A stretch of DNA of 64,000 bases from an uncultured Methanosarcinales archaeon (GTDB lineage: Archaea > Nanobdellota > Nanobdellia > Woesearchaeales > GW2011-AR9): the NCBI GenBank assembly GCA_964344235.1, contig CAYFMJ010000001.1, forward strand, positions 88,664 to 152,663, given 5' to 3'. Below, piece after piece: positions 5,365 through 59,053 of the stretch. The notes beneath the pieces are model-generated. The model saw nothing but the letters and a program-made list of their open reading frames with translations, had not been told where the DNA came from and ran no database searches. The number at the start of each line of letters is the position of its first letter. Within the stretch, counting starts at the first letter, position 1. Made by a program: the position numbers and the translations under genes.

Positions 5365-5853
5365 ATGAGTATTACTAGTAAGAATGTTGGAGTCGGCCTA
5401 ATTGTGTTAGGAATCGTGTTAATTAGTATTCTTTCGTTAGTGAAAATTAACTTTGATAGTCAGGCTGTGTTCCTCTGCCAGGCTGTAAGTAACGATCCAG
5501 GAGTTGAGATGGCTGACTGTCCGGCTCATACAAGTAATATCCCTTGGTTAGTTACGGTTGGATTCGGTGTGGCGTTTCTGGTGTTGGCAGCAGGGATTTA
5601 TCTGTTTGTTGCCAGTCGAGGAGTAGTGCAGAAGAGAGAGGTTAGCGTGGTGGATACAAAACACTTTTCTGAAGAAGAGAAACAGATAGTTAGTATTTTG
5701 GCTGAACGGGGTTCAATGTATCAGAGTGACTTGATTAAGGAGACTGGCTTTAGTAAAGTGAAAATAACGAGATTATTAGATAAATTAGAGCATGATGATA
5801 GAATCCTCGAGCGAAAGCGGCGGGGGATGGCGAATATTGTTGTGTTAAAGTGA
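5365..5853 (+). CDS. Membrane-anchored winged-helix (MarR/PadR-like) transcriptional regulator
   Basis: Two N-terminal TM helices, then a cytoplasmic wHTH (QIVSILAERGSMYQSDLIKETGFSKVKITRLLDKLEHDDRILER). Confidence 0.5.
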   Translation: MSITSKNVGVGLIVLGIVLISILSLVKINFDSQAVFLCQAVSNDPGVEMADCPAHTSNIPWLVTVGFGVAFLVLAAGIYLFVASRGVVQKREVSVVDTKHFSEEEKQIVSILAERGSMYQSDLIKETGFSKVKITRLLDKLEHDDRILERKRRGMANIVVLK

Positions 5854-5855
5854 GT

Positions 5856-5871
5856 TTGAAACTAGTTTCAA
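5856..5871. promoter_or_regulatory. 16-bp perfect palindrome TTGAAACTAGTTTCAA, a candidate operator
   Basis: Perfect inverted repeat immediately after the wHTH regulator gene and about 50 nt upstream of the DUF411/CxxC-membrane/permease operon. Confidence 0.3.
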
Positions 5872-5917
5872 CAGTAGATAGTTAAGGTGTTTCTTCCATC
5901 TTTTTCTAACGAGGTTA

Positions 5918-6370
5918 ATGAAAATGAATGGAAAACTGATGATTATTGCTAGTGTAGTGTTGGTACTCTTTCTTGTCGGATGTAACTCTGAAACGGGAAG
6001 CGAAACGAAAGCGGTTGTGTTTAAATCAGCGAGTTGTGGGTGCTGTGGGATTTATGCTGAGTATATGGATCATAAAGGTTTTGATGTGAACGTGGAGACA
6101 ACGGAGTTAATGGGCCAGGTAAAACAGAAATATGACGTGCCATCACATTTGGAAAGTTGTCATACAACTGATGTTGGTGGTTATTTCGTTGAGGGGCATA
6201 TCCCAGTTGAGGCCATTGAGAAGCTGCTTACAGAAAAACCAGAGATTGCGGGAATTGCGATGCCAGGAATGCCTTCGGGAAGTCCGGGAATGCCTGGGCC
6301 AAAGGATGAAATATGGACTATTTATGCAGTGCATCATAATGGAAGTATAAGTGAGTTCATGAAAATTTGA
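5918..6370 (+). CDS. Secreted lipoprotein of the DUF411 family (metal/copper-binding)
   Basis: Lipobox LVGC. SASCGCCGIY, HxxC and Met/Pro-rich GMPSGSPGMPGP motifs are typical of DUF411. Confidence 0.5.
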   Translation: MKMNGKLMIIASVVLVLFLVGCNSETGSETKAVVFKSASCGCCGIYAEYMDHKGFDVNVETTELMGQVKQKYDVPSHLESCHTTDVGGYFVEGHIPVEAIEKLLTEKPEIAGIAMPGMPSGSPGMPGPKDEIWTIYAVHHNGSISEFMKI

Positions 6371-6376
6371 GGTGGG

Positions 6377-6892
6377 ATGATGAAGTTCAAAACAATTTCG
6401 TGGGGTACGTTGTTCTTGTTGTTGCCCTTCTCGGTAAAAGCGCATTGTCCTCTTTGTACAATAGGTGTAGCTGCTGCTGCAGGCGGAGCTGCGTATCTTG
6501 GAGTGCACGTTGCAGTGATTGGGTTGTTTGTTGGGGCATTTGCTGTGTCAACTGGTTGGTGGGCTTCACGGTGGTTGAAGAAGCAATGTGTGCCATTTCA
6601 GAAAACGTTGATTATAGTAGCGGCGTTTTTACTCACTGTAATTCCGATTCTGCCATTGATCGAAAGTTCATATCCTTTGTATATCCCCTGGTTGGGCGTG
6701 TATGGAACAACACTTGTTGTGAATAGTGCTTTGGTAACGAGTCTTTTAGGGGGTTTGGTAGTTGCAGGCGCGCCGTCTTTGAGCAAGAAGATCAGTGGGT
6801 TGCGAGAGGGTAAGATGATTCCATTTCAGGGAGTTTTGTTGACGTTAGCATTGCTCGCTGTTGTAGGGGTGTTGATCCAGGTGGTGATGTAA
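6377..6892 (+). CDS. Polytopic membrane protein with an N-terminal signal peptide and a CxxC (HCPLC) motif
   Basis: Hydrophobic profile. CPLC right after the signal region. Starts 7 nt after the previous gene, so it is in an operon. Confidence 0.4.
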   Translation: MMKFKTISWGTLFLLLPFSVKAHCPLCTIGVAAAAGGAAYLGVHVAVIGLFVGAFAVSTGWWASRWLKKQCVPFQKTLIIVAAFLLTVIPILPLIESSYPLYIPWLGVYGTTLVVNSALVTSLLGGLVVAGAPSLSKKISGLREGKMIPFQGVLLTLALLAVVGVLIQVVM

Positions 6893-7342
6893 ATGGAAGA
6901 GGTCTTTGTTATTTTTGTGAGTATAATTTCACTATTCTTGTTATTGCTAGTGGTTAAACAGTTTTTGCCTCAAAGCATTAAAGAGCGGTTGTGTGTTCTC
7001 TGTGCAGGTGTTTCTCTCACGTGGATTGCTCTGTTAGTGTTTTACTATCTTGGGGTCTTTGAAAGTAAAATATTAATTGCTTTGTTAATGGGAAATACAA
7101 TGCTAGGCATTTTTTACCTTGTTGAGAAGAAAGTGCAAGAAGAGTTGAAAGTGTTTCGGTTGCCGTTCTATCTGACGTTGTTGTTTATTGCAGTTGGGTT
7201 GCTGCAGATACAGGTGTCCTTTGGAGTTGTGGTGTTACTCGGAGCAGTATGGGCTGTGTTTTTAGGTTTGTATTTGTTTAAGCAAAATGCTACAGTACAT
7301 AGGACTGTGAAAAAAATCATTGAATGTTGTAAAAATTGGTAA
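6893..7342 (+). CDS. Small polytopic membrane protein
   Basis: Four predicted TM helices. Starts 1 nt after the upstream stop. Confidence 0.35.
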   Translation: MEEVFVIFVSIISLFLLLLVVKQFLPQSIKERLCVLCAGVSLTWIALLVFYYLGVFESKILIALLMGNTMLGIFYLVEKKVQEELKVFRLPFYLTLLFIAVGLLQIQVSFGVVVLLGAVWAVFLGLYLFKQNATVHRTVKKIIECCKNW

Positions 7343-7373
7343 AGCATAAATAGAAAATAATATTGGTGAGATT

Positions 7374-8384
7374 ATGGGAAGCGATTGTTGTCATACGGGC
7401 GGAGATTGGTATAAAGAGAAGTTCTGGATTGTCACGTTTATTGTGATTGCAGTGTTAGTTGTATCACATCTTGTTCCGTTTTTGAATCCTGTGCTTGATG
7501 CGTTTGTGGATTATCTGCAAATTATCTGGTGGGCGGTGTTGTTAGGGTTGTTTTTAGGTGGCGTAATAGATAGGTTTGTGCCGGATGAATATGTAGCAAA
7601 GTTTTTATCGAAACCAAAAAAAACGACGATTTTTAACGCTGCCATTTTAGGTTTTTTAATGTCGGCATGCAGTCATGGGATTTTAGCTATCGCAATTCAG
7701 TTGTATAAGAAAGGAGCTTCTGTTCCGGCAGTGATTGCGTTTCTGTTAGCATCACCATGGGCGAACTTGCCGATAACGATTCTATTATTTGGATTTTTTG
7801 GGGTGAAAGCGTTGTTGTTAATTGTGGCGGCAGTTATTATTGCAATTATTACGGGGTTTGTCTATCAGTTATTGGATAAAAAAGGCTGGATTGAGAAAGC
7901 GCCAGAAGTTATAATGCGGGATTTTGCGTTGAAAGAAGATGTGAAGAAGCGGTGGCAGAGTTATTCATTTGATTTTAGAAAGGATGTTGGTGGCGTGTTG
8001 AAGGGTATGTGGTCATTAAACAAAATGGTAACGTGGTGGATTTTGCTTGGCATGTTAGCAGCGTCATTTGTAAGAGCATTTGTGCCGACACACCTCTTTC
8101 ACCAATATATGGGTGCAACGTTTCTAGGGATGGTGGTTGTATTAATAGTAGCAACGATTATTGAAGTGTGCTCTGAGGGGAGTAGCCCTTTAGCATTTGA
8201 AATTTATAATCAAACAGGGGCGTTTGGAAATAGTTTTGTGTTCTTAATGGCAGGTGTGGCTACAGATTATACAGAAATTGGTTTGCTATGGAGTAATATC
8301 GGGAAGAAAACGGCATTGTGGTTGCCAGTAATTACTGTACCGCAGATTTTAGTTGTTGGGTACTTGTTGAATGTGTTACTTTAA
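7374..8384 (+). CDS. Two-repeat permease (DUF318/YraQ-like) with an N-terminal CCH metal-binding motif
   Basis: N-terminus MGSDCCHTGGDW. About 8-10 TM helices. Resembles the DUF318 permease family. Confidence 0.5.
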   Translation: MGSDCCHTGGDWYKEKFWIVTFIVIAVLVVSHLVPFLNPVLDAFVDYLQIIWWAVLLGLFLGGVIDRFVPDEYVAKFLSKPKKTTIFNAAILGFLMSACSHGILAIAIQLYKKGASVPAVIAFLLASPWANLPITILLFGFFGVKALLLIVAAVIIAIITGFVYQLLDKKGWIEKAPEVIMRDFALKEDVKKRWQSYSFDFRKDVGGVLKGMWSLNKMVTWWILLGMLAASFVRAFVPTHLFHQYMGATFLGMVVVLIVATIIEVCSEGSSPLAFEIYNQTGAFGNSFVFLMAGVATDYTEIGLLWSNIGKKTALWLPVITVPQILVVGYLLNVLL

Positions 8385-8746
8385 TCAAAATATTCAACGT
8401 CGTCAGAAGTAATGGTGATTTCTTTCGGTGCTGGTTTTGAGTAGGAAGGTTTCGGTTTTTCTTGGGTTGTTGAGGTCGGTGCGTCTTTCATCGTTATGTC
8501 TTTAATTTGCATTGCTTTTTGAAAATTAAAGTTGCCACAATTAATGCAGTTAAAGTATGCTCCAAATTTGCCAACACGTTGTTCTAGCCAGGAACCGCAG
8601 GTGCATTTGATTTCTTCGAATTTGGATTTAACATGTTTTGGGCAGACTTCGATGCCCTGCTCGTTTTTTTGAGTTGCTTGTCCTTGGCAGAATGGGCAAC
8701 GGATGACTTTATAATTTCCGTATTGTTTTTTTGCTTTGAAGCGCAT
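8381..8746 (-). CDS. Zinc-ribbon protein (topoisomerase-type Zn finger)
   Basis: CPFCQG...CPKH and CTCGS...GKFGAYFNCINCGNF resemble topo I C-terminal zinc ribbons. Confidence 0.5.
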   Translation of the reverse strand: MRFKAKKQYGNYKVIRCPFCQGQATQKNEQGIEVCPKHVKSKFEEIKCTCGSWLEQRVGKFGAYFNCINCGNFNFQKAMQIKDITMKDAPTSTTQEKPKPSYSKPAPKEITITSDDVEYFD

Positions 8747-8783
8747 AAGAGAAGAGTTGTTGTTGATTTTATAAAACTAAGGG

Positions 8784-9779
8784 TTACTTCATCTTTTGTA
8801 AGTATAGTTGCAGTTTCTTCCAGATTTTTTCTTTTGTATCTGAATCTATTGAAAGCCTTTGTATCTCTGCTTGCCAATCAACATCAGGAAGTTTAGTGAG
8901 GGTACCTTTAAACGTTCTACCTGCGAGGATTGATTGATGTTCAATCTCTTTAGCCAGTTCAGACCCAAAGAGTTTTGTTGCTTTAAATTTTGAAATGGTG
9001 TTAGCGCCAGATTTTAGTAGTGTTGAAACGTATTCGATTCGGTCTTCCCAAATCCCGCATTGGATATCTAATGTTGGAAATGCAATTCGAAGTTGAGATA
9101 TCCACCATGCTTGTTCTTCCACTGTAGGTTTTTGTGCCTTTTCGAAGGGGGTTCCTGCTTGTGGGATGAGCCCGTAGATGTGAATTTTGTTAATCCCATA
9201 CTTAGTTATGAAGTTTTTTAGTAAGGTAAGGTCCTCTCTTGTTTCACCCATCCCTACAATAAAAGTCATTGCCCTTTGTAGACCCATCTCTTGTGCGTTT
9301 TTAAACATGATTTCGTATGGTTTTAGGGGTTTAGAAGGGCAGACTTGTTTATGGAGTTCTGGATTGATTGTTTCAGTGGAGCCAACAACCCCTTTAATGT
9401 ATGGCTGGTAGCGTTGAAGTAATGGTTTAGCGACGGGTCCAACTGAAAGCCAGATCCTTTCTCCCGTAATTTCTACAGCTGCTTTGAGGAGAAATTCTAA
9501 TTCGTCTGGTTTCAGCACACCTATGCCCCCCGTGAAGAAGCCAATGTCCCAGCCAAGATGTTTAGCAAGAATGAACTCAGCGAGAATAGACTCATTACTC
9601 CTTTTTGTTTCTTTAACAACTTTTTCTTTTGGTTGGGTGCTCATATAACAAAATGTACAGTCTCCAATCATACAACCCCAGCTAAAGAAAATAGCTCTCT
9701 CGAATTTAGTCTCTAGGAGGAAGTTCTGCTTGAAAATAACTTCGGCTTGTTCAATTATTGTTATTGGTATTTGTTCCAT
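8784..9779 (-). CDS. Radical SAM enzyme (BioB/ThiH-like fold)
   Basis: CTFCYMS, a Cx3Cx2C-like cluster motif, near the N-terminus. TIM-barrel-sized at 331 aa. Confidence 0.65.
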   Translation of the reverse strand: MEQIPITIIEQAEVIFKQNFLLETKFERAIFFSWGCMIGDCTFCYMSTQPKEKVVKETKRSNESILAEFILAKHLGWDIGFFTGGIGVLKPDELEFLLKAAVEITGERIWLSVGPVAKPLLQRYQPYIKGVVGSTETINPELHKQVCPSKPLKPYEIMFKNAQEMGLQRAMTFIVGMGETREDLTLLKNFITKYGINKIHIYGLIPQAGTPFEKAQKPTVEEQAWWISQLRIAFPTLDIQCGIWEDRIEYVSTLLKSGANTISKFKATKLFGSELAKEIEHQSILAGRTFKGTLTKLPDVDWQAEIQRLSIDSDTKEKIWKKLQLYLQKMK

Positions 9780-9823
9780 AGGTGTCTATTTTCTTAGATT
9801 TTTTAAAAGAGTGATGGAAGTAA

Positions 9824-10591
9824 TTAGGTTCGTAATTTATAGCCGGTTTTAAAGAGATGGACACAGAGTAGGAAGAAGAATATTGTAAGGATGCTTACCA
9901 ACAGTATGGAATGGGTTAGAGGAACATCTGACACGCCAATGAAGCCGTAGCGGAATCCATCAACCATGTAGAGGATTGGGTTGAATTTTGCAACAGATTG
10001 CCAAATCCCAGGTAACATTTGGATTGAGTAGAACACCCCACCAAGATAGGTTAATGGTGTGATGAGGAATGTTGAAAAGACGCTCATTTGATCAAAGTTC
10101 TCTGCCCAGAGTGCAGTAACGATACCAGCAAAGGCAAACAGGAGAGATGTTGCGATGATAAAGAACAGTAAGAGAAAGAGGTTATGTACTGTTACTGTGG
10201 TGAAGAGTAAACTTACTGCGAGAATGCCAAAACCAACAAGTAACGCACGGATAATCGCCGCTATAGTTAAGCCAGCAATAATTTGCCAGTAGGCAATTGG
10301 AGACACGAGTAATTCTTCTATCCCTCGATGAAACCGTTGGATGTATAATGAGAATGACGTGGAAGCATAGGCACTCATGATAACCCCCATCATTAACAAT
10401 CCAGGAAGAATAAATTCTAGATACGACGTGCCAGCAATTTCTGAAATTCTTGACCCCAATGAGTAACCGAAGATTACAATGAAGAGTGAGGACGTTAAAA
10501 TAGGAGGGATAATGGTTTGTGTCCACACACGGAATGTCCGAGTTACTTCTTTTCGCGTTAATGTCCATAATGCGGTGAGGGTTGAAGTCAT
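9824..10591 (-). CDS. ABC-2 type transporter permease
   Basis: Six TM helices with an ABC-2 family pattern. Overlaps the start of the ATPase gene. Confidence 0.7.
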   Translation of the reverse strand: MTSTLTALWTLTRKEVTRTFRVWTQTIIPPILTSSLFIVIFGYSLGSRISEIAGTSYLEFILPGLLMMGVIMSAYASTSFSLYIQRFHRGIEELLVSPIAYWQIIAGLTIAAIIRALLVGFGILAVSLLFTTVTVHNLFLLLFFIIATSLLFAFAGIVTALWAENFDQMSVFSTFLITPLTYLGGVFYSIQMLPGIWQSVAKFNPILYMVDGFRYGFIGVSDVPLTHSILLVSILTIFFFLLCVHLFKTGYKLRT

Positions 10592-11316
10592 AGGTTTGTT
10601 AGTTCAATGAACACTTCCTCCAATTTTTTATCCTTGCCAGATGATTTTAGAAGATTTTCTTTTGTATCAAGTTTGATTATTTTGCCGTGATTAATTATTG
10701 CGATTCTTTCACATAATGCTTCTGCTTCCTCTAAATAGTGAGTTGTGAGAAGAATTGTTGTGCCTTCTTTGTTGAGTTGCTGCATATATTTCCACATAGT
10801 TTTACGTGTTTCAACATCGACACCGGCAGTTGGTTCATCTAAGATGAGGATTTTTGGTTTGTGCATTAGTGCACGAGCGATCATTAATTTACGTTTCATT
10901 CCCCCCGAGAGAGTTCGGGCCTGTTCGTTGCGCTTTTCCCATAAGTTAAGTGCAGTGAGAACTTCTTTGATTCGATCGTGGCGTTCTTTTGCAGGGATGC
11001 CGAAATAGCCTGCATTAAAGTAAAGAATGTTGTACACTTTTTCAAAGATATCGAAATTAAATTCTTGTGGCACTAATCCGATAAGTGCACGTGCTTCTTT
11101 GTAGTCTTCCGCTACATCTTTCTCAAAGAGTTTTACAGTTCCAGATGTTTTGTTTACTAGTCCAGTAAGAACCCCAATAGCTGTTGTTTTCCCAGCACCG
11201 TTAGGACCTAATAGACCAAAGAATTCTCCTTCGTTAATCTCTAGTGAGATGTTATCAACTGCTTTGGTATTAGGGTATGCTTTTGTGAGGTTTTTGATAG
11301 TGATTGCAGCAGCCAT
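10588..11316 (-). CDS. ABC transporter ATP-binding protein
   Basis: Walker A GPNGAGKTT. Signature LSGGMKRKL. Walker B ILILDEPT. H-loop. Confidence 0.9.
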   Translation of the reverse strand: MAAAITIKNLTKAYPNTKAVDNISLEINEGEFFGLLGPNGAGKTTAIGVLTGLVNKTSGTVKLFEKDVAEDYKEARALIGLVPQEFNFDIFEKVYNILYFNAGYFGIPAKERHDRIKEVLTALNLWEKRNEQARTLSGGMKRKLMIARALMHKPKILILDEPTAGVDVETRKTMWKYMQQLNKEGTTILLTTHYLEEAEALCERIAIINHGKIIKLDTKENLLKSSGKDKKLEEVFIELTNL

Positions 11317-11596
11317 CTGGCGTTGATAAGGGGAAGTTATTTATAGTTTTCGAGAATGGTACGTGTATGCCCCTCTACGCAGAAGGAATTTTATGGTATA
11401 TTGTTCTGTTAGATTGTATTGTTTACAACATTTTTGCATGGACTGGTTGGAGAAACAGAACAACACATTGGATCTCTCAATATTTTCCAATTAACAAATG
11501 GGTAGGGATTTGGTATTTGATTATGGTGTTGTGGTTAGGGTATTCTTTATTACGTATGGATATTATTTTGTTCCAGTGATTTTTGTGTTACAATAA

Positions 11597-11608
11597 TTTT
11601 TATAAATA
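11597..11608 (+). promoter_or_regulatory. TATA box (tttttataaata) upstream of icd
   Basis: About 21 nt upstream of the ATG at 11629. Confidence 0.4.
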
Positions 11609-11628
11609 TTAGATCAGATGTACTAGTT

Positions 11629-12819
11629 ATGGCCAACATTACATTTTCTGAAGGTGCTTGGAACATTCCGAATAATCCGGAGATTGGTTATATTATCGGT
11701 GATGGTATTGGCATTGATGTGACACCCGTAGCAATGCAGGTGTTAAACGCCGCGGTGGAGAAGGTGTATAATGGTGAGAGGAGGATCATGTGGAAAGAGA
11801 TTATTGTAGGAGAGAAAGCGGCAGAACAAGGAAAGGATAATTTAACAGAGGAGGCACTGCGGGAAATTGCGGATGCCAGAGTTGTGTTAAAAGGGCCGTT
11901 AACTACACCTGTTGGTTCTGGGTTTCGGTCACTAAATGTTGCGATTAGACAAAAGTTGGACCTGTATGCTTGTGTTCGCCCAGTAAGATGGTTTGAAGGC
12001 GTCCCTGCGCCAGTGAAGCAGCCGGAGAAATTAGATGTGGTTGTATTTCGAGAAAATACAGAAGATGTCTATGCGGGTATTGAGTTTCAGGAAGGAAGTG
12101 ATGAGGCGAGCGATATGATTGGTTTTTTGTGGGAGAAGGGAAAAGTTGTAAGGGGGGATTCTGGTATTGGGGTAAAGCCAATTAGTATAGCTGGTTCTAA
12201 AAGGTTAGTGAGGGCTGCGGTTAATTATGCATTAAAACACGGAAGAACCTCAGTTACATTAGTGCACAAAGGGAATATTATGAAATTTACTGAAGGTGCA
12301 TTTAAATCATGGGGGTATGAGGTAGCAAAGAAAGAGTTCGCAGATAGTGTTGTGATGGAGGGAGAAGAGGTTGAAGGAAAGATTGTTGTGAAAGATCGAA
12401 TTGCTGATGCGATGTTTCAACAATTATTACTGCGACCCGGGGAATATGATGTCATTGCAACAATGAACCTTAATGGAGATTATTTATCTGATGCGTGCGC
12501 TGCGCAGGTTGGTGGGCTAGGCTTAGCTCCAGGGGCGAATATAAATTATGAGCAAGGGATTGCCGTGTTTGAAGCGACGCACGGAACTGCTCCTAAGTAT
12601 GCAGGACAAGATAAAGTAAACCCAGGATCTGTTATTTTAAGTGGTGTGATGATGTTAGACCATTTAGGCTGGAAAGAGGCAGCAGCATTGGTTGTTAAAG
12701 CAATGACCAAAACAATTCAGCAGAAAAAAGTAACGTATGATTTGGAGCGGCAGATGGAAAGTGCAACACTAGTTTCTAGTTCTGAGTTTGGTAAGGCAAT
12801 TATTGAAAATATGGGTTAA
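11629..12819 (+). CDS. icd: Isocitrate/isopropylmalate dehydrogenase family enzyme, most likely NADP-isocitrate dehydrogenase
   Basis: The N-terminus and length (396 aa) match ICD-type beta-decarboxylating dehydrogenases. GDGIGIDV and [10 protein letters not shown] motifs are present. Confidence 0.75.
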
Positions 12820-12840
12820 AGTTTTTAAAAGAAGCAGGTA

Positions 12841-13356
12841 TTGGAAGAAGCGATGGATGCAAAAAAGATTGGCATGGTTATTTTGGTGGTAAGTATAGCA
12901 CTGTTAGTGGTATTTGTTCTGACGTCACAGAACCTGAGTACAGAAAGTGAACAACTAGGGTGTTTCAGTGATGAAAATTGTCAGCCGGTACAACAGTCTT
13001 TATCCTTGGTGAACGTAGGGTTTGGGTTTTTCGGGTTCATTCTCGCTCTTGGGTTTTACTTAGTATTTTTTTCAAAAGGAAATGAGGCTCTTTTGAATAA
13101 GTTAGAGAGTGAGGGCAAACGAATCGATGGAGAGGAACGGTTTTCTATTCTGTTAATGGGTTTAGATGATTTTGAAAAGAAAGTGGTGCAGGAAGTGAAG
13201 AAGCAGCAAGGCATTACACAAAATACTCTGCGGTTGCGAACAGATATGTCTAAATCGAAGTTAAGTCAGGTGTTGAGTGGCTTAGAGAAGAAAGGATTGG
13301 TTGTTCGGAAACAGCAAGGTAAGACGTTAGCAGTATTTTCTAAGGTTAATTTGTAA
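12841..13356 (+). CDS. Membrane-anchored wHTH regulator, paralogous in architecture to 5365..5853
   Basis: An N-terminal TM, a CxxxxC-containing periplasmic segment, a second TM, then a wHTH (ITQNTLRLRTDMSKSKLSQVLSGLEKKGLVVR). Confidence 0.5.
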   Translation: MEEAMDAKKIGMVILVVSIALLVVFVLTSQNLSTESEQLGCFSDENCQPVQQSLSLVNVGFGFFGFILALGFYLVFFSKGNEALLNKLESEGKRIDGEERFSILLMGLDDFEKKVVQEVKKQQGITQNTLRLRTDMSKSKLSQVLSGLEKKGLVVRKQQGKTLAVFSKVNL

Positions 13357-13362
13357 TCATGA

Positions 13363-13372
13363 ACGTTTAAAC
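13363..13372. promoter_or_regulatory. 10-bp palindrome CGTTTAAACG between the wHTH regulator gene and the dsbA-like gene
   Basis: Perfect palindrome. A further stem gttttgg...ccaaaac lies at about 13397-13428. Confidence 0.25.
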
Positions 13373-13461
13373 GGCTGAATTTTTTGTTTTAAGAGGTTTT
13401 GGTGGTTTGTGTTACGGCCCCAAAACATATATGGTTCTAGGAATTACTATTGTAAAAAACA

Positions 13462-14280
13462 TTGGAGGTTATGATAATGGATCCAGACCAAACGGGAGAA
13501 CAGCCGAAGCATGAGCACCGAGAACACCATGGGCATCATGAACATAAGGTGTCTCCAGTGAAACAGGAAAGTACGAGTTCTTCAAATTCTGAAGGAAAAC
13601 ATAAATTTTTAGTTGGAGCAGCAGTAGTGCAGGTGATTCTTTTGCTATACATTGCTTTCCAAGTTGCAGGCGGCGGAGTTGCTGGCGTTGGTTTAGAAGG
13701 CGGAGCAGTTGTTGACCCTGGCTATGGTGAAGCAGACGTGCCAAGCGCACCAATTGATATGGAGAGTTTAATGGATGACGATGCAATTAAAGGTGACCCA
13801 AATGCACCGGTTACAATCGTAGAGTGGAGTGACTTTGAATGTCCGTTCTGTGCACGGTTTTACTCTGATACTTTGAGCTTAATTGATGAGAAGTATATTC
13901 AAACGGGTAAAGTAAAGTTAGTCTACAGAGATTTCCCACTAAGTTTCCATCCAAACGCACAAAAATCTGCGGAAGCAGCAGAATGTGCAGGAGAACAAGG
14001 GAAGTACTACGAAATGCATGATTTACTGTTTGAGAGAGGCGTTGCAGGTGGTGTAACGTCATATAAGCAGTTTGCACAGCAACTTGGTTTGAACACGGCA
14101 GAGTTTAACACCTGCCTTGATTCCGGAGCAATGGCGTCAGAAGTTCAGAAAGACTTCGCTGATGGTCAAAGAGCAGGCGTTCAGGGAACACCAGGGTTTA
14201 TTGTCAATGGACAATTAATCTCAGGAGCACAGCCATTCCCGGTGTTTGAGCAAGTGATTGAAGCTGCACTACGTGGTTAA
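13462..14280 (+). CDS. DsbA-family thiol:disulfide oxidoreductase (secreted or anchored)
   Basis: An N-terminal TM anchor, then the DsbA CxxC active site WSDFECPFCARFY and C-terminal DsbA-like helices. His-rich N-terminus. Confidence 0.75.
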   Translation: MEVMIMDPDQTGEQPKHEHREHHGHHEHKVSPVKQESTSSSNSEGKHKFLVGAAVVQVILLLYIAFQVAGGGVAGVGLEGGAVVDPGYGEADVPSAPIDMESLMDDDAIKGDPNAPVTIVEWSDFECPFCARFYSDTLSLIDEKYIQTGKVKLVYRDFPLSFHPNAQKSAEAAECAGEQGKYYEMHDLLFERGVAGGVTSYKQFAQQLGLNTAEFNTCLDSGAMASEVQKDFADGQRAGVQGTPGFIVNGQLISGAQPFPVFEQVIEAALRG

Positions 14281-14327
14281 AATCTTTTTTTTCTTTTTTT
14301 AAAATTTTGTTTTAACAGAGGAAGAAT

Positions 14328-14714
14328 ATGGCATTAGATAGACAACAAAAGGCATTTTTGAAGAAATCAATTCCCTTTACGGCATTTATTGGGGGGTTGT
14401 GTTGTTTTATGCCAGTTGTGTTAGTGTTGTTTGGGTTAAGTAGTGTAACATTTGCGGCTTCTCTCTCAGACGTGTTGTATTACGATTACCGATGGGTGTT
14501 TCGGAGTGTTGCGTTGTTGTTGTTATTGGGAGCGTTGGGATGGTATTTTTACAAGAAGGAAGGAGTTTGTACGCTTGATGCGATGAAGAGGAAAAGGAGG
14601 AAGATTATTAACTTTACACTGCTTGTAATAGGGGTAGCAGTGATAGCATATATCATTTGGTTATATGTGATCGTTGAGATTATTGGGTTGTTACTAGGGA
14701 TATGGAATTTGTGA
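14328..14714 (+). CDS. Small membrane protein
   Basis: Three TM helices. Overlaps the next membrane gene, so it is in an operon. Confidence 0.35.
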   Translation: MALDRQQKAFLKKSIPFTAFIGGLCCFMPVVLVLFGLSSVTFAASLSDVLYYDYRWVFRSVALLLLLGALGWYFYKKEGVCTLDAMKRKRRKIINFTLLVIGVAVIAYIIWLYVIVEIIGLLLGIWNL

Positions 14715-15202
14715 AGAATATTGGGTGCGCACTACGGGAAGCGTATAGTGAAAAGAAGTATTATGTTATTAGTATTGGAGTGGCCGTCGTTATTTTTTTG
14801 TTGAATGTGTTAGTACATAATTACAAATTATTGTTTAGTGATGGTTCGTTGTTCTTTTCACTCGTTGTAGGGTTTTGGTATACTGTTTCGCCTATTGCGT
14901 TTTTCTTTTTGCTATTCTTAGCAGTATTTTCTGGAGTTGTAGTGTCGATGAGTTTGTACGTGTTACGAAGGCAGTTTAAGATAGGAGTAGCTGCTGGTTC
15001 CTCAAGTTTTGTGGCAGGATTAATTGCACCTGCTTGCCCATCCTGTGCATTAGGTTTACTCAGTGTGGTTGGATTAGGGGGGGTTGTTGGAATATTGCCG
15101 TTTAAGGGATTAGAATTAGGTTTTCTAGCAGTGGTGGTATTAGGGTGGTCGTTTATCTATCTATCAAAGAAAATAGCCACAACAGTGTGTGAGATCAAAT
15201 AG
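14702..15202 (+). CDS. Membrane protein with an intramembrane CPSC motif; possible DsbB/CcdA-like redox partner
   Basis: AGLIAPACPSCALGLL within a TM region. Five TM helices. Adjacent to the DsbA-like gene. Confidence 0.35.
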   Translation: MEFVKNIGCALREAYSEKKYYVISIGVAVVIFLLNVLVHNYKLLFSDGSLFFSLVVGFWYTVSPIAFFFLLFLAVFSGVVVSMSLYVLRRQFKIGVAAGSSSFVAGLIAPACPSCALGLLSVVGLGGVVGILPFKGLELGFLAVVVLGWSFIYLSKKIATTVCEIK

Positions 15203-15545
15203 GACAGCCACTCTTCTCAGCGAGAACTTCTGGTGTCAATGCGCCGTTCATTCTGGAGCCATCGGCAAATTCCCAAGTAGGGTATGATTGAATACCCTCG
15301 CTCTGGCAGTATTCTGTTTGTGATTGCCCATCAGGTAGAGAACATTCGATGTAGTTTACGTTGTCAAAGCTGTCTCCTAGCATTTTCTTCTGAGCATTGC
15401 AAGCACCACACCAAAACGCCCCGAACATTTTAACGTCATTATCTGTAAGGCATTGTGTTAATGCGTCATATTGTGTGTTTGAACAAGCGCTTAGAACAAA
15501 TAGCGCTGTTATTGCGAGAATGATAACAACGTTTTTAGATTTCAT
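15195..15545 (-). CDS. Secreted thioredoxin/glutaredoxin-fold protein with CGAC
   Basis: Lipobox-like signal sequence, then FGAFWCGACNAQK (thioredoxin CxxC). Confidence 0.6.
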   Translation of the reverse strand: MKSKNVVIILAITALFVLSACSNTQYDALTQCLTDNDVKMFGAFWCGACNAQKKMLGDSFDNVNYIECSLPDGQSQTEYCQSEGIQSYPTWEFADGSRMNGALTPEVLAEKSGCPI

Positions 15546-15601
15546 TTTTGGGAGAAGAGAGTATCCTTATTTAAGATTAATGGAAAAAAGAAAAGAAAAA
15601 A

Positions 15602-16129
15602 TTATTCCACGACGATTTTACCTTTCATGCCCATCGTTGCGTGAGGCTGGCAGACGTAATAGTACGTTCCTGGTTCGTCGAATGAAATTGTTGCTGTCTC
15701 ACCAAAACCAACTTCAAAACCACCGTTAAGAAGAGCTTTTTGGTTTTTGTTCCAGTTTTCTTCTGACACCTGTACAACGTTGTGGGTTGATCCTAGATCA
15801 AATGTTACAGAATCACCAACAGCAATGGTTACTTCATCTGGAGTAAATGTTAAACCTTCAGTTGTGACTTCAACACTAGGGGATTCAGAAGCTGGTTCTT
15901 CGAGAGTTTCTTCAGAGTCTTCTGTTTCCTCTAACTCTTCCGGTTCTTCATCTGTTTCAGTTTCTGGTTCGTCTTCAACAAAGAGTGGTTCTTCCTCTGC
16001 ATCTTCAGAGCTTTCCTCAACTGCTTCATCAGCTTGTGGAAGATCTTCTTCAACGGGTGCTTGCTGTGTGCAGCCAATGACAAGAGCGAGTGCAAGAATC
16101 GCTAATACTACAATCATTAATTTTTTCAT
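15602..16129 (-). CDS. Blue-copper (cupredoxin/plastocyanin-like) lipoprotein
   Basis: Lipobox IGCT. Acidic linker. Type-1 copper ligands: H (THNVV) and YYYVCQPHATMGMKG (C-x2-H-x2-M). Confidence 0.75.
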   Translation of the reverse strand: MKKLMIVVLAILALALVIGCTQQAPVEEDLPQADEAVEESSEDAEEEPLFVEDEPETETDEEPEELEETEDSEETLEEPASESPSVEVTTEGLTFTPDEVTIAVGDSVTFDLGSTHNVVQVSEENWNKNQKALLNGGFEVGFGETATISFDEPGTYYYVCQPHATMGMKGKIVVE

Positions 16130-16184
16130 ATATAATCACCTATGCTATTTATGGAAGAATGGAGGGTTGGGAGATATTTAAAGA

Positions 16185-17048
16185 TTACTCAACACAAGAC
16201 GCTAGATTTTGGTTTATTCGTGATTTGTTGAGTTTCTCTCCAATGAAAACGAGAGTGGATGGTTTATTTTCTGTTTCTTCTAGTTCCCATCTACCGACTA
16301 CGTAGTTAAGAAGAAAGGATTGGTTGTTTATGGTTATATACCCTTTAACACGGAAAATAGAATTGGGTAGGGAGTTAAGGAACTTGGTAAGTTTCGCTTT
16401 GTTGAGAGGTTGTGGTTGAATAAGGTGGGTTTCCATGTGATGATGGTGTTCTGATTTTGTGATGTGTTGATGAGTCGCTTCAATGCCAAGGAGAATGTTG
16501 AGGTCTATCTTGCAGTGATCTGTTTCAATAATTGGTGCTTTTAGGTTAATGGTTTTGATGATTTTTTTCACTTGCTCTGTTTCTTCTCTTTTAAGTAAAT
16601 CTATTTTGTTTAGCAGTAGAAGATCTGCGGTTTCAATCTGGATCTTGGCAGAACCCTTAACGTCTGGAAAGCGGTTTGTGATATCTGCATCAACAACGGT
16701 AATGACGGCGTCAAGCGTGATGTTAGGGATGTCAGAGATGTCAACAACTAAATTGTCTGCTTCCGCTATACCTGTTGTTTCGATGATAATTGTGTCAGGG
16801 GAGTAGAGTTCAATGATTTCCTGCAGTCCTGCTTCTAATTCTCCTTGTAAAGAGCAGCATACACAACCTTCAAGTAGTTCTTTCACTGCAATAGTATCAT
16901 GTTTAATCACTTCTGTATCGATGCCAACTTCCCCAAACTCGTTCATAAGAACAGCGATTTTTTTGTCTGTGTGTTTGAGAATGTGTTTTAGTAGAGTCGT
17001 TTTACCAGCACCGAGGTAGCCCGAGAGGAGGATTAAAGGGGTTTTCAT
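16185..17048 (-). CDS. COG0523/CobW-family G3E GTPase metallochaperone
   Basis: P-loop GYLGAGKTT. GCVCCS metal-binding motif. His-stretch SEHHHH. A C-terminal CobW_C-like domain. Confidence 0.8.
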   Translation of the reverse strand: MKTPLILLSGYLGAGKTTLLKHILKHTDKKIAVLMNEFGEVGIDTEVIKHDTIAVKELLEGCVCCSLQGELEAGLQEIIELYSPDTIIIETTGIAEADNLVVDISDIPNITLDAVITVVDADITNRFPDVKGSAKIQIETADLLLLNKIDLLKREETEQVKKIIKTINLKAPIIETDHCKIDLNILLGIEATHQHITKSEHHHHMETHLIQPQPLNKAKLTKFLNSLPNSIFRVKGYITINNQSFLLNYVVGRWELEETENKPSTLVFIGEKLNKSRINQNLASCVE

Positions 17049-49828: not shown

Positions 49829-50311
49829 ATGGAGAATATTGTGTTGAAGGAAGGTCTTGGGGGAGATTTTGGTAGTTCTAAGCTCGTTTCTTTGATTGAA
49901 GGCAAAACGAAAAAAGAATTACTGTCTAATTTGAAAATAAATAAAGGAAAAACAACAGTTTATAGGGCTTTGAGTGAGGAGATGTTACGGTTTGCTTTGG
50001 AAAGAACTGATGTTGATATTGTGTTGGGAATGGAGGGTATTCATTACAAAGATCACACACATTACCCTCGTGGCGGTTTGGATCAGATTACAAGTAAAAT
50101 TGCTGCTGCGAAAGGTAAGACTATTGGGTTTTCGTTTGCGGATATTTTGCGTTCGAAAGATAGAGGAAGATTATTGGGTAGAATGATGTTGAATATTCGG
50201 TTGTGTAAGAAGTATAATGTCAAAATGGTGTTTAGTTCATTTGCCTCTTCAAAATCGGAGATGCGAAGTACAAAAGATTTGGAAGCATTTTGGCGCATTC
50301 TTTCTCGGTAG
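49829..50311 (+). CDS. RNase P protein subunit Rpp30-like (short)
   Basis: PHP/TIM-barrel-like pattern (VDIVLGMEGIHYKDH...IGFSFADIL...KMVFSSFASS). 160 aa, which is shorter than typical Rpp30. Confidence 0.45.
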   Translation: MENIVLKEGLGGDFGSSKLVSLIEGKTKKELLSNLKINKGKTTVYRALSEEMLRFALERTDVDIVLGMEGIHYKDHTHYPRGGLDQITSKIAAAKGKTIGFSFADILRSKDRGRLLGRMMLNIRLCKKYNVKMVFSSFASSKSEMRSTKDLEAFWRILSR

Positions 50312-50358
50312 CGTTAATAACATTTATAAACAATGGTTGTTTGTTTTTGAGTATACTT

Positions 50359-53300
50359 ATGGTGGAGAAAAAAAGAGGTTTAGTTTTAGTAGTCTTTGTT
50401 GCTTTTCTAGTAGTGATGAGCGTGGGTGTTTTAGGTGTTCCTGACAAGAATACAGATGCTTTTCCAACCATTGGACACCGGGCCGATTTAGGTTATGAAT
50501 ATGATCAGGGTTGTGGTTCTTATGATGTTGACGATTGCCCGCAAGGTGACACTTACAAGCTAGATGAAGATCACAGTACCTGTTCTGCATCAGGAAGCGA
50601 TTTGTCTCCTTTATTCGATGCCTGTAAAATTTTTTTTGTCGATAAAGATGAGGGAAATGATGATGGGGGGTTTGGGCTAGCAGATGAGGGTTATATTCTA
50701 GACTCAGTTGGCTACGAAAAACTTGGCCTTCACAGCTATGAGAAAGTCTGTGGGCAAGAAGGAGACCATGATAATGATGGGGTTGAGGGGCTAAAAGGAG
50801 CGAAGTTTAAAGCAGCTGATAATACTGCATATATTTGTGGAAATAACCTGGGAGAACCAAATAAATGGTATAAATGTACTTCAGAGACGCTTGACACTGT
50901 AACATGGGCAAACGGTGACTTATATAATTGTACTTTCAGTGCTAGTACTGGCTTTCCAACTTGGAAAAACGAAGGAGGGGATACGGACTTTGATACTTTT
51001 GCTCAAGAGGTAGATTGTAAAGATAACCCCCCGAGTGGATCCTGTTTAAACCTGGCACCAGAAGATTGTGCAAGCTCTCCTGAAAATTATGAATGCCCAC
51101 AGTGTATTAACCCTGATGCGCCTGAGGTATGTGGAGATGGCAAAAACAATGATTGCAATGAAGCGACTTCTGATAACTGTCATGATAATCAGGCAGCATG
51201 TGAGGCACTTGACACGGCAGTTGGTTGGAATATTCATGATGAGAAATATGCTTGGCAACAAACGGGAAGCGAGGGAGCCGGTTTCTGTTGTGGATTCAGT
51301 GGAAGTGGTGATGGTAATGTAGGGGAGGTGTCGGAGAGTATTGGTGGCACTAACAAGCTATGTGTGAATAAAGAATATACCACAACAAACGGAGAGATTT
51401 CATCAAGTGAGACCGAAGGAGTTGAGTGTAGTGGATCTGGGTGGTGTTTAGTGAGCGCAGTTGTTGGGTCTAAGTTTCAGATATACACTATTGCAGAACC
51501 GGAAAAAGAACCTTATGATGTTGTTTCCAATGGAGATAATTGGTATGAATGTAGTAGCAGCTACCATGAACCTCTGCTACCGGAAGATACAGGTGTAAGG
51601 ACAAAGGCTAATGCGTTTTACTGCTTCGATGAGGGAAATCATTGGAGTTGGGCTGAATGTCCTTTAGGGGAAGAGGGTGAAGTTGAAAGCGAGAATAGCG
51701 GTACGACTAAAATTAGGCACAAAGGAGATGGATTATATCAGCTGTTTCCAACAAATGATAAAAACCAGTTTGGAGTTTTGGTAGATGCAAAGGATCCAAT
51801 TTACACAAGTTTGTATAGTGAGGATTTCTTGTTAGATTTTAGCGGATATAACCAATTGAATTTTATGATTCAGTTTCTGAGTGAAGTAACCCTGCCAGCT
51901 GATGTTAAGGTGCAAATTTATGGTTCTGATGATGAGCTGAAATGGCAAGGGAATGTTCTTGGCTTTAGTACTAATAATCCTGTGCTAGTTGCAGATACGT
52001 TCTTTCATGTGCAAGTTCCCATTGCTCCGTTTAAAGATGTTGAGAAAGTTCTGATAGAGAGTATTGGCGACTTCAATCATATTGAGGTGAAGAATATTTA
52101 TATGAGTGTCCAGGGAGAGCAACCCTACTTGTGTTCGGCAAAGCAATCAAACCAACCACAACAACCAGCATGGTTGACGAATGCAGATGACATTATTGAA
52201 AATACATTGATTACTGGAGAAAATATTTGTAATGAGTTGTATGGTGGCTGGTTAGGAGATGAAGTAGATGATGTCGAAAGAAGGTGTTGTGGTGATGATG
52301 TGGGGGAATATTATGCTGGCCCAGGAAAGAACGGTTGTTGGAATTCTGAAGTTGTTGTAGGTGGGGGAACAATGATGAATGCTCAAGTTGAGGTTACGTC
52401 ACAATATTCAACAGTTGGAGAGGTTGAGGGTGTAGCAGTGAGAACTGTTACATTTGAGTGGGACTATGCAACGCCTTCAGAGGATCCGGTGACTCTTACG
52501 GATGCTGAGTGTAAGCAATATACAAAAGAGCACAATTGTCCTATTGGCTGTAAGTGGGTAGCTGATTACGGGGTTGGATGTATTGCATTAAATGCAGATG
52601 CGATTATTGCTGCACCAACTTCAGGCGTTAATACGCAAGAAGCTTCAATTGAGATTGAGTATGATGGCTCTACTGTTTCGCCGAAGTCTATCACACTGAA
52701 AGAATTGGGGTTTGAGGTTGAGGGTGTTGAATCAGGAGAGTTATCTATAAACACGGGAATCGAACTCTTCATTGCTGGCTCTTTTCAAGATCACGGTGAT
52801 GAATTCGAGTTTTTCTCTGAGAGCGATTATATTTTAGGAAATAATCAGTTTGAAGTTGGCGATTTTAAAGATATTAGCTTTTCCTTTGTTCATGATGATA
52901 ACTACTATGAAAATAATAAAGAAACGGTGAAGAAGCTTGTTGTTGGTACTCAACCAGAGGAAATGATGAAAACGTATTCGTGCTCTCAAGCGGCGTGTAC
53001 GTTCCCAATTCCGGGGTTTCCACCGTATACTATCAGTAACCCGTTCCCTGATTTATATGAGATATATTTTGTTGATGGACCAGGAATTGATGATAGACAT
53101 CCAATTGATAAGAATGGAAAGACGTTTGATCAGGTAGGGAATGTTGAAGTCACAAAGGTTGCACAGCAAGTTGTGCTTGTTAATAGTGATACAGAGCATC
53201 AATTTTATGGTTGTGCGCCTTCGCAAACGTTAATTAACAGTATTCCTACAGAAGATCAAGATAGTTTCACTGCATTAAGCCATTGCGCGGTGAAAGCAGA

Positions 53301-55209: not shown

Positions 55210-55210
55210 A

Positions 55211-55301
55211 ATATGTCCCGCTTGCACGGCACGATTACGGTGACTTCTTGAATCTTTTTTATCTACGCCACCGTGTGCCTCCATTGGCAAAGCGGACATA
55301 T
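55211..55301. ncRNA. Structured RNA-like element, copy 2 of 2
   Basis: Helices atatgtcc(c)gctt/aagcggacatat, ggcac/gtgcc and acggtg/caccgt. Conserved GCAC, GATT and CCATTGGC. Lies 50 nt upstream of the 855-aa gene. Confidence 0.4.
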
Positions 55302-55352
55302 CCTATCACGAAAGTAATTAATTTTATAAGATAGAAGTGATTAGGTGTTTCT

Positions 55353-58987: not shown

Positions 58988-59053
58988 TGCGTTTCTTCCA
59001 CGGTAGGCAGCTACAAACATTTATAAACGGCAACTGTTTCTTGTAGACGTAGA

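Follow-up and report, generated by a model that had tools for sequence, protein, structure and literature searches.

The 64,000-nt stretch of DNA analysed here (the window; contig CAYFMJ010000001.1 of assembly GCA_964344235.1, positions 88,664–152,663) carries between positions 5365 and 17048 an island of about 12 kb that combines genes for extracytoplasmic thiol-redox chemistry with genes for copper handling. How cysteine chemistry is conducted outside the cytoplasm in cells without respiratory quinones is an open question, and DPANN archaea are such cells, which have tiny genomes and export very Cys-rich proteins. An initial annotation, made from the letters alone, had outlined the island; every gene that it named was found at its coordinates when the open reading frames (ORFs) were checked, and Pfam, NCBIfam and PDB-sequence searches confirmed all of its domain calls. 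There are two sub-clusters and each is headed, as proposed, by a gene for a membrane-tethered winged helix-turn-helix (wHTH) regulator with two transmembrane segments (TM) and a DUF7343/MarR domain (5365 and 12841). Sub-cluster 1 (5365–8384) lies wholly on the + strand and encodes regulator 1 (reg1), a DUF411 lipoprotein, two proteins with the motifs HCPLC and CVLC...ECCKNW, and an ArsP_1 permease. In sub-cluster 2 the genes for regulator 2 (reg2), a DsbA-family protein, a MerT-like protein and a membrane protein with the motif CPSC are on the + strand, and those for a thioredoxin (Trx) lipoprotein, a cupredoxin lipoprotein and a COG0523 GTPase are on the − strand, convergent with them. The features are as follows.

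5365–5853, + strand: reg1, with TM, extracytoplasmic loop containing C-x13-C, TM and cytoplasmic DUF7343/MarR wHTH (DUF7343, 3.4e-11)
5856–5871, no strand: palindrome TTGAAACTAGTTTCAA, a predicted operator, in the gap that separates reg1 from the DUF411 gene
5918–6370, + strand: CopG-like DUF411 lipoprotein, CGCC motif, lipobox LVGC (PF04214, 1e-24, 86.4 bits)
6377–6892, + strand: HCPLC membrane protein with signal peptide, uncharacterised family
6893–7342, + strand: CVLC five-TM protein, CxxC at the cytoplasmic start of TM2, C-terminal ECCKNW, uncharacterised family
7374–8384, + strand: ArsP_1 (formerly DUF318) permease, N-terminal DCCH (PF03773, 1e-35)
8784–9779, − strand: BioB-like radical SAM protein (PRK06267), a recurrent island neighbour
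12841–13356, + strand: reg2, paralogous membrane-tethered wHTH regulator, loop C-F-x4-C (DUF7343, 6e-8; MarR_2, 2e-6)
13359–13367, + strand: ATGAACGTT box just 3' of reg2, overlapping the 10-mer CGTTTAAACG
13462–14280, + strand: DsbA-family oxidoreductase (Thioredoxin_4, PF13462, 2e-35; DSBA, PF01323, 2e-21)
14328–14714, + strand: MerT-family three-TM protein, CC in TM1, one Cys in the cytoplasmic loop (PF02411, weak, 6.6e-5)
14702–15202, + strand: CPSC-family membrane protein, candidate DsbA partner, four TM, N-in/C-in
15195–15545, − strand: Trx-like lipoprotein, CGAC motif (1.5e-15 to the Trx domain of Synechococcus VKOR, PDB 3KP8/3KP9)
15602–16129, − strand: type-1 (amicyanin/plastocyanin-like) blue copper lipoprotein with acidic linker (PF00127 Copper-bind, 6e-18, 65.6 bits)
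16185–17048, − strand: COG0523 metallochaperone GTPase with GCVCCS and a His run (cobW, 4e-48, 163.7 bits; CobW_C, 52.4 bits)

The protein encoded at 14702 belongs to a large family outside Pfam-A, NCBIfam and PDB, which we call the CPSC family. A word-indexed search returned only 37 relatives; a profile search covering 1.84 billion representatives returned at least 1,393 clusters at 50% identity with E ≤ 1e-3, 543 of them with E ≤ 1e-10. Searches of Pfam and NCBIfam with 83 diverse members gave nothing beyond noise, and the family profile had zero matches among PDB sequences. All 83 contain a CxxC, most commonly CAAC, with Pro before it and a Gly-rich helix after it, as well as an external PFxGxE loop (83/83) and another Cys about 50 residues past the CxxC (83/83); about a quarter have a C-terminal CxxC. 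Beyond the three Cys no Met or His ligand is conserved in these members, nor does the family conserve an external Cys pair as DsbB and VKOR do. In 14702 itself the CxxC lies in TM3 of four, in the middle of a 31-residue hydrophobic segment, and the counts of Lys and Arg put the N-terminus, the loop at 89–100 and the C-terminus on the predicted cytoplasmic side.

Gene order and natural fusions connect this family with DsbA. A DsbA gene lies within 150 nt of 71 of the 124 CPSC-family genes and within 2.5 kb of 27 more, and most pairs share a strand, the stop of one gene overlapping the start of the next. The DsbA–CPSC pair stands by itself among ribosomal genes in a distant archaeon, and the pair together with copper genes recurs down to approximately 25–30% identity in varying gene orders. 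Three clusters of fusion proteins (P0131, P0135 and P0183) join a CPSC core through a basic linker and one TM to a DsbA domain, and the P0131 fusion is identical across three independently assembled samples. This adjacency and these fusions show the CPSC family to be a dedicated partner of DsbA, and the order of parts in the fusions also places the C-terminal Cys of the CPSC core in the cytoplasm. Further fusions join members to a cupredoxin domain (P0082 and the related locus L017) or to a Cys/Met-rich domain, and a paralogue of about 150 aa with the motif CPLC always adjoins a membrane-anchored protein homologous to CupA, the Cu(I) chaperone of pneumococcus (2MRY/4F2E, 2e-6, with C...CxMxM aligned). 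No prior description of the CPSC family or of the membrane-tethered regulators was found in the searchable literature.

Several relatives have settings of their own. Pairs of the CPLC paralogue and the CupA-like protein (C...CSMGM) lie at 6533–7383 in L079, 6529–7376 in L074, and 7347–7760 and 8961–9410 in L036, and look like a separate copper-chaperone module. The P0131 fusion gene in L112 (1637–4075) is divergent from a gene for the methionine sulfoxide reductase MsrB (SelR), with one small ORF between them, which suggests an oxidative-damage context. In L009 (4108–5219) a small relative with a CPIC motif follows a membrane protein that by eye is of the MsrQ/ferric-reductase type. Homology of the CPSC family to the MerT-like protein, or to a CHSVC protein of L005, was considered and dropped, as the hhalign comparisons were not significant.

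Homologues of 14702 and 6893 gave entry to related contigs. A genome scan yielded 24 related loci and a metagenome scan, for which the query was an alignment of the CAAC subgroup (A4), yielded 80; approximately 110 were compared in all. Neighbouring genes were annotated by phmmer and all-against-all clustering in 106 sequence sets, consisting of the related loci and the window segment. DsbA is present in 89/106 sets and DUF7343 regulators in 48. Other recurrent neighbours, by number of loci, are a DUF3105-like protein with a C2H2 finger (28), an unnamed four-TM protein (17), ArsR (15), VKOR-type Trx (12), a Met-rich membrane protein (10), the secreted Cys-rich protein p214 (9), DUF302 (8), DsbB (8), DUF411 (7), the HCPLC family (7), VKOR (5) and the CVLC family (5). 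CopA and fusions of HMA, DsbD_TM and cupredoxin domains also recur; they have no separate count, as the fusions merged their clusters with the CPSC cluster. Nearly all recurrent neighbours stand in one + strand array in L039, and the island therefore represents a genuine supra-operonic gene order of DPANN genomes. Homologues of its genes carry the names Woesearchaeota, Pacearchaeota or Nanoarchaeota, which identifies the host as a DPANN archaeon, and genes identical to those of the window occur in metagenome runs ERR22818xx. The thiol-redox and copper island of the initial annotation is thus genuine and is widely conserved across these DPANN groups.

The DUF3105-like protein (L061, 5404–5964, and 27 other loci) has a cytoplasmic C2H2 zinc finger, one TM and an external domain with weak likeness to DUF3105, and its gene is often between or beside the DsbA and CPSC genes. 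A likeness of one neighbouring membrane family to DoxX was seen by eye only and was not confirmed by Pfam.

The DsbA protein scores above the cut-offs for Thioredoxin_4 (122.7 bits) and DSBA (77.2 bits) with a full-length match, and its residues 109–271 align with 4PWP. It has CPFC at 127–130, a Thr-cisPro site (GTP ahead of the final strand) and a second Cys pair; among its homologues CPFC is present in 77/90 and GTP in 76/90. The initial annotation had named the lack of a signal or anchor in this protein as grounds for giving up its envelope module, and a single N-terminal hydrophobic TM anchor is predicted from the sequence, following a charged, His-rich cytoplasmic tail, so that the catalytic domain is expected outside the cytoplasm. 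The true start is probably the ATG at 13471 rather than the TTG at 13462, and the database gene call likewise begins at an ATG downstream of the TTG. The His-rich tail, HEHREHHGHHEH (within 13462–13600), may bind metal; the homologue in L002, the sole other one of which the tail was read, has no counterpart.

Loop Cys pairs are found in all 58 regulator homologues (one pair in 51, two pairs in 7), and a reg2-type gene is located upstream of DsbA or CPSC in many loci. The initial annotation had reported a palindrome behind each regulator, and both are present. The first, the 16-mer TTGAAACTAGTTTCAA, is the sole perfect palindrome of at least 14 nt in the window. Its core TGAAACTAGTTTCA / GTAGAACTAGTTCTAC has 37 sites in 928 kb of related loci, of which approximately 29 are intergenic and directly upstream of island genes, with p214 (7), DsbA (9), the Met-rich protein, DsbD_TM-cupredoxin and the regulators themselves 3' of the sites. 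From its sequence conservation we take it to be a conserved operator, and because DsbA and copper genes share it in several lineages they are probably co-regulated. The second palindrome, the 10-nt CGTTTAAACG, did not hold up as an operator: the window has 38 such palindromes, so that this one is at chance level, and it has 0 occurrences in the related loci. It overlaps the conserved box ATGAACGTT, which occurs 21 times in the same 928 kb, 16 of them within 180 nt downstream of a regulator gene, mostly of the reg2 type; this zone makes up 1.1% of the related sequence. About 55 nt past ATGAACGTT there is often GTTCAGAC, the core of which is its reverse complement. We infer that reg1 binds the TGAAACTAGTTTCA palindrome and reg2 binds ATGAACGTT. 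Regulators of the ToxR/CadC type are one-component proteins with a membrane-tethered DNA-binding domain, and the island regulators resemble them in this tethering and in an external Cys pair through which disulfide status could be read, but have two TM, a C-terminal DUF7343/MarR wHTH and an archaeal host. They would act as one-component sensors that read external copper or thiol oxidation through the loop Cys pair.

Sub-cluster 1 is best read as copper handling. The DUF411 protein 5918 is a clear CopG homologue: it matches the solved DUF411 structure 6WIS (4.8e-21), with the CxCC, SCHT and PGMPxGSPGM motifs aligned, and these motifs are kept in 7 homologues. The HCPLC and CVLC proteins (6377 and 6893) have no Pfam or NCBIfam match. 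In 7 homologues of 6377 the sequence AHCPLCT is invariant, and because it sits at the predicted signal-peptidase site the mature N-terminus would be an outward-facing HCxxC; the genes of these homologues always adjoin a DUF411 or CVLC gene. The 6893 family has 19 members in which C34, C37, C145, C146 and W149 are invariant, and the charge distribution would put all four Cys on the cytoplasmic face. Its (L/I)xECC(K/R) tail also ends an unrelated soluble helical protein (L036, 2727–3221; L061, 11532–12026), the gene for which replaces the CVLC gene 3' of the HCPLC gene in some loci. The nearest named relatives of the permease 7374 are the SO_0444 Cu/Zn efflux (NCBIfam, 1.4e-36) and SaoE families, at scores below the curated NCBIfam equivalog cut-offs (126 vs 300 bits for SO_0444 and 119 vs 325 bits for SaoE), and it is assigned to the ArsP_1 superfamily only. 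The locus L005 has an array of CopA, reg1, radical SAM, HMA-DsbD_TM-cupredoxin, p214 and DUF411 genes followed by the HCPLC and CVLC families; the window itself contains neither CopA nor p214. Compared with the known CopG, CupA and ArsP/SO_0444 proteins, with which CupA-like domains in related islands are also shared, the island has CopG in an archaeal lipoprotein form, no CopA in the window and a permease below the cut-offs of the named subfamilies.

Within sub-cluster 2, the MerT-family protein 14328 matches PF02411 over its full length at 23.4 bits, under the gathering score of 32.9, and has 136 homologues, most of them with a recorded PF02411 match. It has a CC pair at 25–26 and a single loop Cys (81) where MerT has two. 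No MerR, MerP or MerA was found in the window, L119 or L120, and the gene lies between DsbA and CPSC only in the lineage of the window. This protein is 55–75% identical across DPANN and some haloarchaea, without a mer operon, and in L119 its gene adjoins those of a rubrerythrin and a CxxCxxCC protein. The VKOR-type Trx, represented in the window by the lipoprotein 15195, is near a CPSC gene in 11 related loci and directly adjoining in most; in L026 the homologue of 15195 is fused to VKOR, beside a CPSC gene. This classical VKOR-Trx fusion (10874–11701) is directly 3' of the CPSC-family gene, with no DsbA in the flank. The blue copper protein 15602 has a lipobox and the cupredoxin ligands H...C-x2-H-x2-M (STH...YVCQPHATM), and its NCBIfam plastocyanin and halocyanin matches are under their cut-offs. 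The COG0523 gene is only weakly tied to the island: outside the source organism it stands next to a cupredoxin gene in L027 only.

The initial annotation had seen in the island a disulfide-forming and copper-handling module, for which a membrane partner like DsbB or VKOR was needed. No homologue of DsbB (PF02600), VKOR (PF07884) or CcdA/DsbD_TM (PF02683) was found in the window. When the VKOR of L002 and the VKOR-Trx of L026 were used as phmmer queries only the Trx part was matched, at 15195, and neither Pfam nor phmmer with the DsbD_TM of L005 linked 14702, 14328, 6377 or 6893 to DsbD_TM. The AF2 models of 14702 (pLDDT 72) and 6893 (good, pLDDT 86) are both unlike the DsbB and VKOR folds. The thiol-redox and copper part of the proposal stands. 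Disulfide generation is not supported by the window, which has no homologue of DsbB, VKOR or CcdA, and the predicted positions of the CPSC cysteines are mid-membrane and cytoplasmic.

The annotation had also proposed that the island serves giant Cys-rich surface proteins, and Cys-rich ORFs are indeed present where it had placed them. Four consecutive + strand ORFs at 50290–64000 (1639, 855, 356 and >1664 aa, the last running past the window end) have 3.3–4.5% Cys, and their Cys counts of 58, 28, 16 and 68 are all even, which is compatible with disulfide bonding. Of the four, the last alone matches Pfam (CarboxypepD_reg and fn3). They are 35 kb from the island, and in 0.96 Mb of related loci no giant Cys-rich gene lies beside the island, where the sole large ORF to come near that Cys content, in L015, has 817 aa and 2.9% Cys. 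Linkage and probable co-regulation of the island are with copper genes and not with giant Cys-rich genes, and its service to the giant surface proteins is speculation.

The reading that we favour, at a probability of roughly 45%, is that the island is an envelope regulon, Scs/Cue-like, that couples copper handling to extracytoplasmic thiol chemistry, with the CPSC protein as a reductive relay. The CPSC protein would then relay thiol-disulfide exchange across the membrane, from its C-terminal Cys in the cytoplasm by way of the mid-membrane CxxC to the CxxC of DsbA, and would most likely move reducing power outward, as CcdA, DsbD and ScsB do. Outward-moving reductant would keep the copper-binding cysteines of the DsbA-like and CupA-like proteins functional under copper or oxidative stress. 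The design of the CPSC protein is consistent with this, as its cysteines span from the cytoplasmic side to mid-membrane and an external shuttle pair is lacking, and a CupA-like fusion partner is common to the CPSC family and to DsbD_TM (L005). True DsbB or VKOR genes share an operon or cluster with the CPSC family in 13 loci, which agrees no less with a reductive or copper-protective relay than with a disulfide generator. Scs proteins are Dsb-like proteins induced by copper that bind Cu(I) and occur alongside canonical Dsb systems (PMC10907172), and the cysteines of CupA need a reductant not yet identified (PMC5646241).

The kind of system, a DsbA protein with a membrane partner coupled to copper, is already known, and the components are new. 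The closest parallel is Scs (ScsB, ScsC and ScsD of Salmonella, Proteus and Caulobacter), which likewise combines a DsbA-like Thioredoxin_4 protein with a dedicated membrane partner and an extra membrane- or lipid-anchored Trx protein, shows linkage and co-regulation with copper genes, and coexists with canonical Dsb enzymes (PMC10907172, PMC3322552). In contrast to Scs, the membrane partner in the island belongs to an unrelated four-TM family, its DsbA is nearer to MdbA and BdbD than to ScsC, its regulators are membrane-tethered wHTH proteins and not CpxRA, and it belongs to an archaeon, which has only one membrane. Scs pairs ScsB, a DsbD-class protein, with ScsC; the window has no DsbD-class protein, and therefore the island is Scs-like in working at most and no Scs member. 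With CcdA and DsbD the CPSC protein shares membrane-embedded redox cysteines preceded by Pro and an external partner of Trx fold, and the CupA-like cupredoxin that is fused to CPSC relatives also occurs on DsbD_TM in L005. However, it has four TM instead of six to eight, and its CxxC lies in a single helix where CcdA and DsbD have one Cys in each of two repeats.

Several findings weigh against a reductive relay. No homology of the CPSC family to CcdA or DsbD was detected, and the AF2 model of 14702 is of moderate quality and poor around the CxxC. The closest solved relatives of the DsbA protein are oxidases, the C. diphtheriae MdbA (4PWP, 3e-25) and BdbD, with ScsC more distant (7e-9), and the type to which the Trx lipoprotein belongs, that of the VKOR partners, is oxidative. 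L038 has an apparent operon of CPSC, DsbA and DsbB (PF02600) genes (5953–7908) in which the DsbA and DsbB ORFs overlap, and VKOR heads the cluster in five loci; were both a reductase and an oxidase to act on the same DsbA, a futile cycle would result. No gene for a cytoplasmic thioredoxin or thioredoxin reductase was seen consistently linked in the related loci. In addition, all function is read from sequence and gene context.

Ranked next, and on balance somewhat unlikely, is the model of the initial annotation, an oxidative-folding machine in which the CPSC protein would be a third kind of membrane enzyme that re-oxidises DsbA, with a function analogous to that of DsbB and VKOR, serving exported Cys-rich proteins, the giant ones included, possibly with the copper of the cupredoxin as electron sink in a DPANN cell poor in quinones. 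The oxidase-like DsbA and the VKOR-type Trx lipoprotein, whose homology to the VKOR Trx domain recalls VKOR-Trx systems, both argue for it, as do the even Cys counts of the giant ORFs. The CPSC protein is the sole local candidate partner in a window without DsbB or VKOR, and it has a four-TM N-in/C-in topology like DsbB. As in DsbA-DsbB and MdbA-VKOR pairs, the DsbA gene stands beside one for a small four-TM membrane protein with a CxxC, and the CPSC-DsbA fusions mirror the known VKOR-Trx fusions. But the likeness to DsbB and VKOR extends neither to sequence nor to fold, the external Cys pair through which those enzymes shuttle is not conserved, and the conserved cysteines lie mid-membrane and, the third one, on the cytoplasmic side. 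For oxidation, a thiol-only relay to the cytoplasm is thermodynamically uphill. The genuine DsbB or VKOR in 13 loci would make a second oxidase redundant, and giant Cys-rich genes are absent beside the related islands.

We consider it unlikely, and less likely than disulfide formation, that the CPSC and MerT-family proteins pass on a thiophilic metal, most plausibly Cu(I), and no electrons, for cupredoxin metallation or detoxification. Under this Mer-like scheme the ion would be exchanged between an external CxxC or CxMxM binder (DsbA-like or CupA-like) and the cytoplasmic Cys. MerT, MerC and MerF have a membrane-embedded Cys pair and a cytoplasmic Cys, a design that the CPSC protein matches, together with an external CxxC partner comparable to MerP. 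That DsbA and CPSC flank a gene of the MerT family, albeit one whose Pfam match is under the gathering score, points the same way, as do the pairing or fusion of the CPSC family with CupA-like Cu(I) chaperone domains, the HMA-DsbD_TM-cupredoxin fusion, which puts a cytoplasmic copper-binding domain on the same polypeptide, and the position of the island among copper genes with an operator in common. DsbA proteins of the ScsC type bind Cu(I) tightly (PMC8900818). The dominant partner, however, is a DsbA with CPFC and Thr-cisPro, the signature of a redox enzyme, the CPSC family is not homologous to MerT by hhalign and lacks conserved Met/His ligands, the MerT-family gene is unlinked to DsbA in other genomes, and the context without MerR, MerP and MerA is one of copper and Dsb, not of mercury. 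That there is no functional island, and genes with incidental Cys motifs are juxtaposed only by the shared ancestry of close relatives, is strongly disfavoured. Such chance grouping would account for the IDH, ABC-2 transporter and other housekeeping genes that are interspersed and syntenic in close relatives and for the COG0523-cupredoxin link in one other locus only, but not for a DsbA–CPSC pair that recurs with copper genes in differing orders at 25–30% identity, for the fusions, or for a common operator ahead of several island genes.

A reductive, Scs-like relay thus remains the preferred reading of an island built largely from undescribed families. A bolder proposal, which we regard as rather doubtful, is that CPSC/CAAC proteins are a third, quinone-independent class that recycles DsbA, after DsbB and VKOR. 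They would form disulfides through a cytoplasmic or copper sink in quinone-poor DPANN archaea, or be a minimal four-TM replacement of CcdA/DsbD, and the regulators would be the first archaeal extracytoplasmic redox/copper sensors. The island yields, besides the CPSC family, further families with Cys motifs and a pair of membrane-tethered regulators with defined, predicted operators. It also couples copper homeostasis genetically to Dsb-type chemistry in archaea, a coupling for which the main examples so far were the Scs systems of pathogenic bacteria.

The remaining genes in the 12-kb span lie between the sub-clusters and code for a Zn-ribbon protein, the BioB-like radical SAM protein, an ABC-2 transporter and IDH. 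The Zn-ribbon protein, the ABC-2 transporter and IDH have no evident island role. Homologues of the radical SAM protein occur after reg1 in L004 and L005, in both directly 3' of it (L005, 2353–3414), and inside the island in L006, L018 (4745–5809) and L027 (7246–8301). The flanks of the window code for archaeal PCNA and an RNase J-like protein. Over the window (1–64000) the GC skew is positive in nearly all 2-kb bins, the lone exception being a bin at −0.007. It reaches 0.3–0.44 where + strand genes lie, and the cumulative skew climbs almost monotonically, which suggests a strong loading of G over C on the coding strands.

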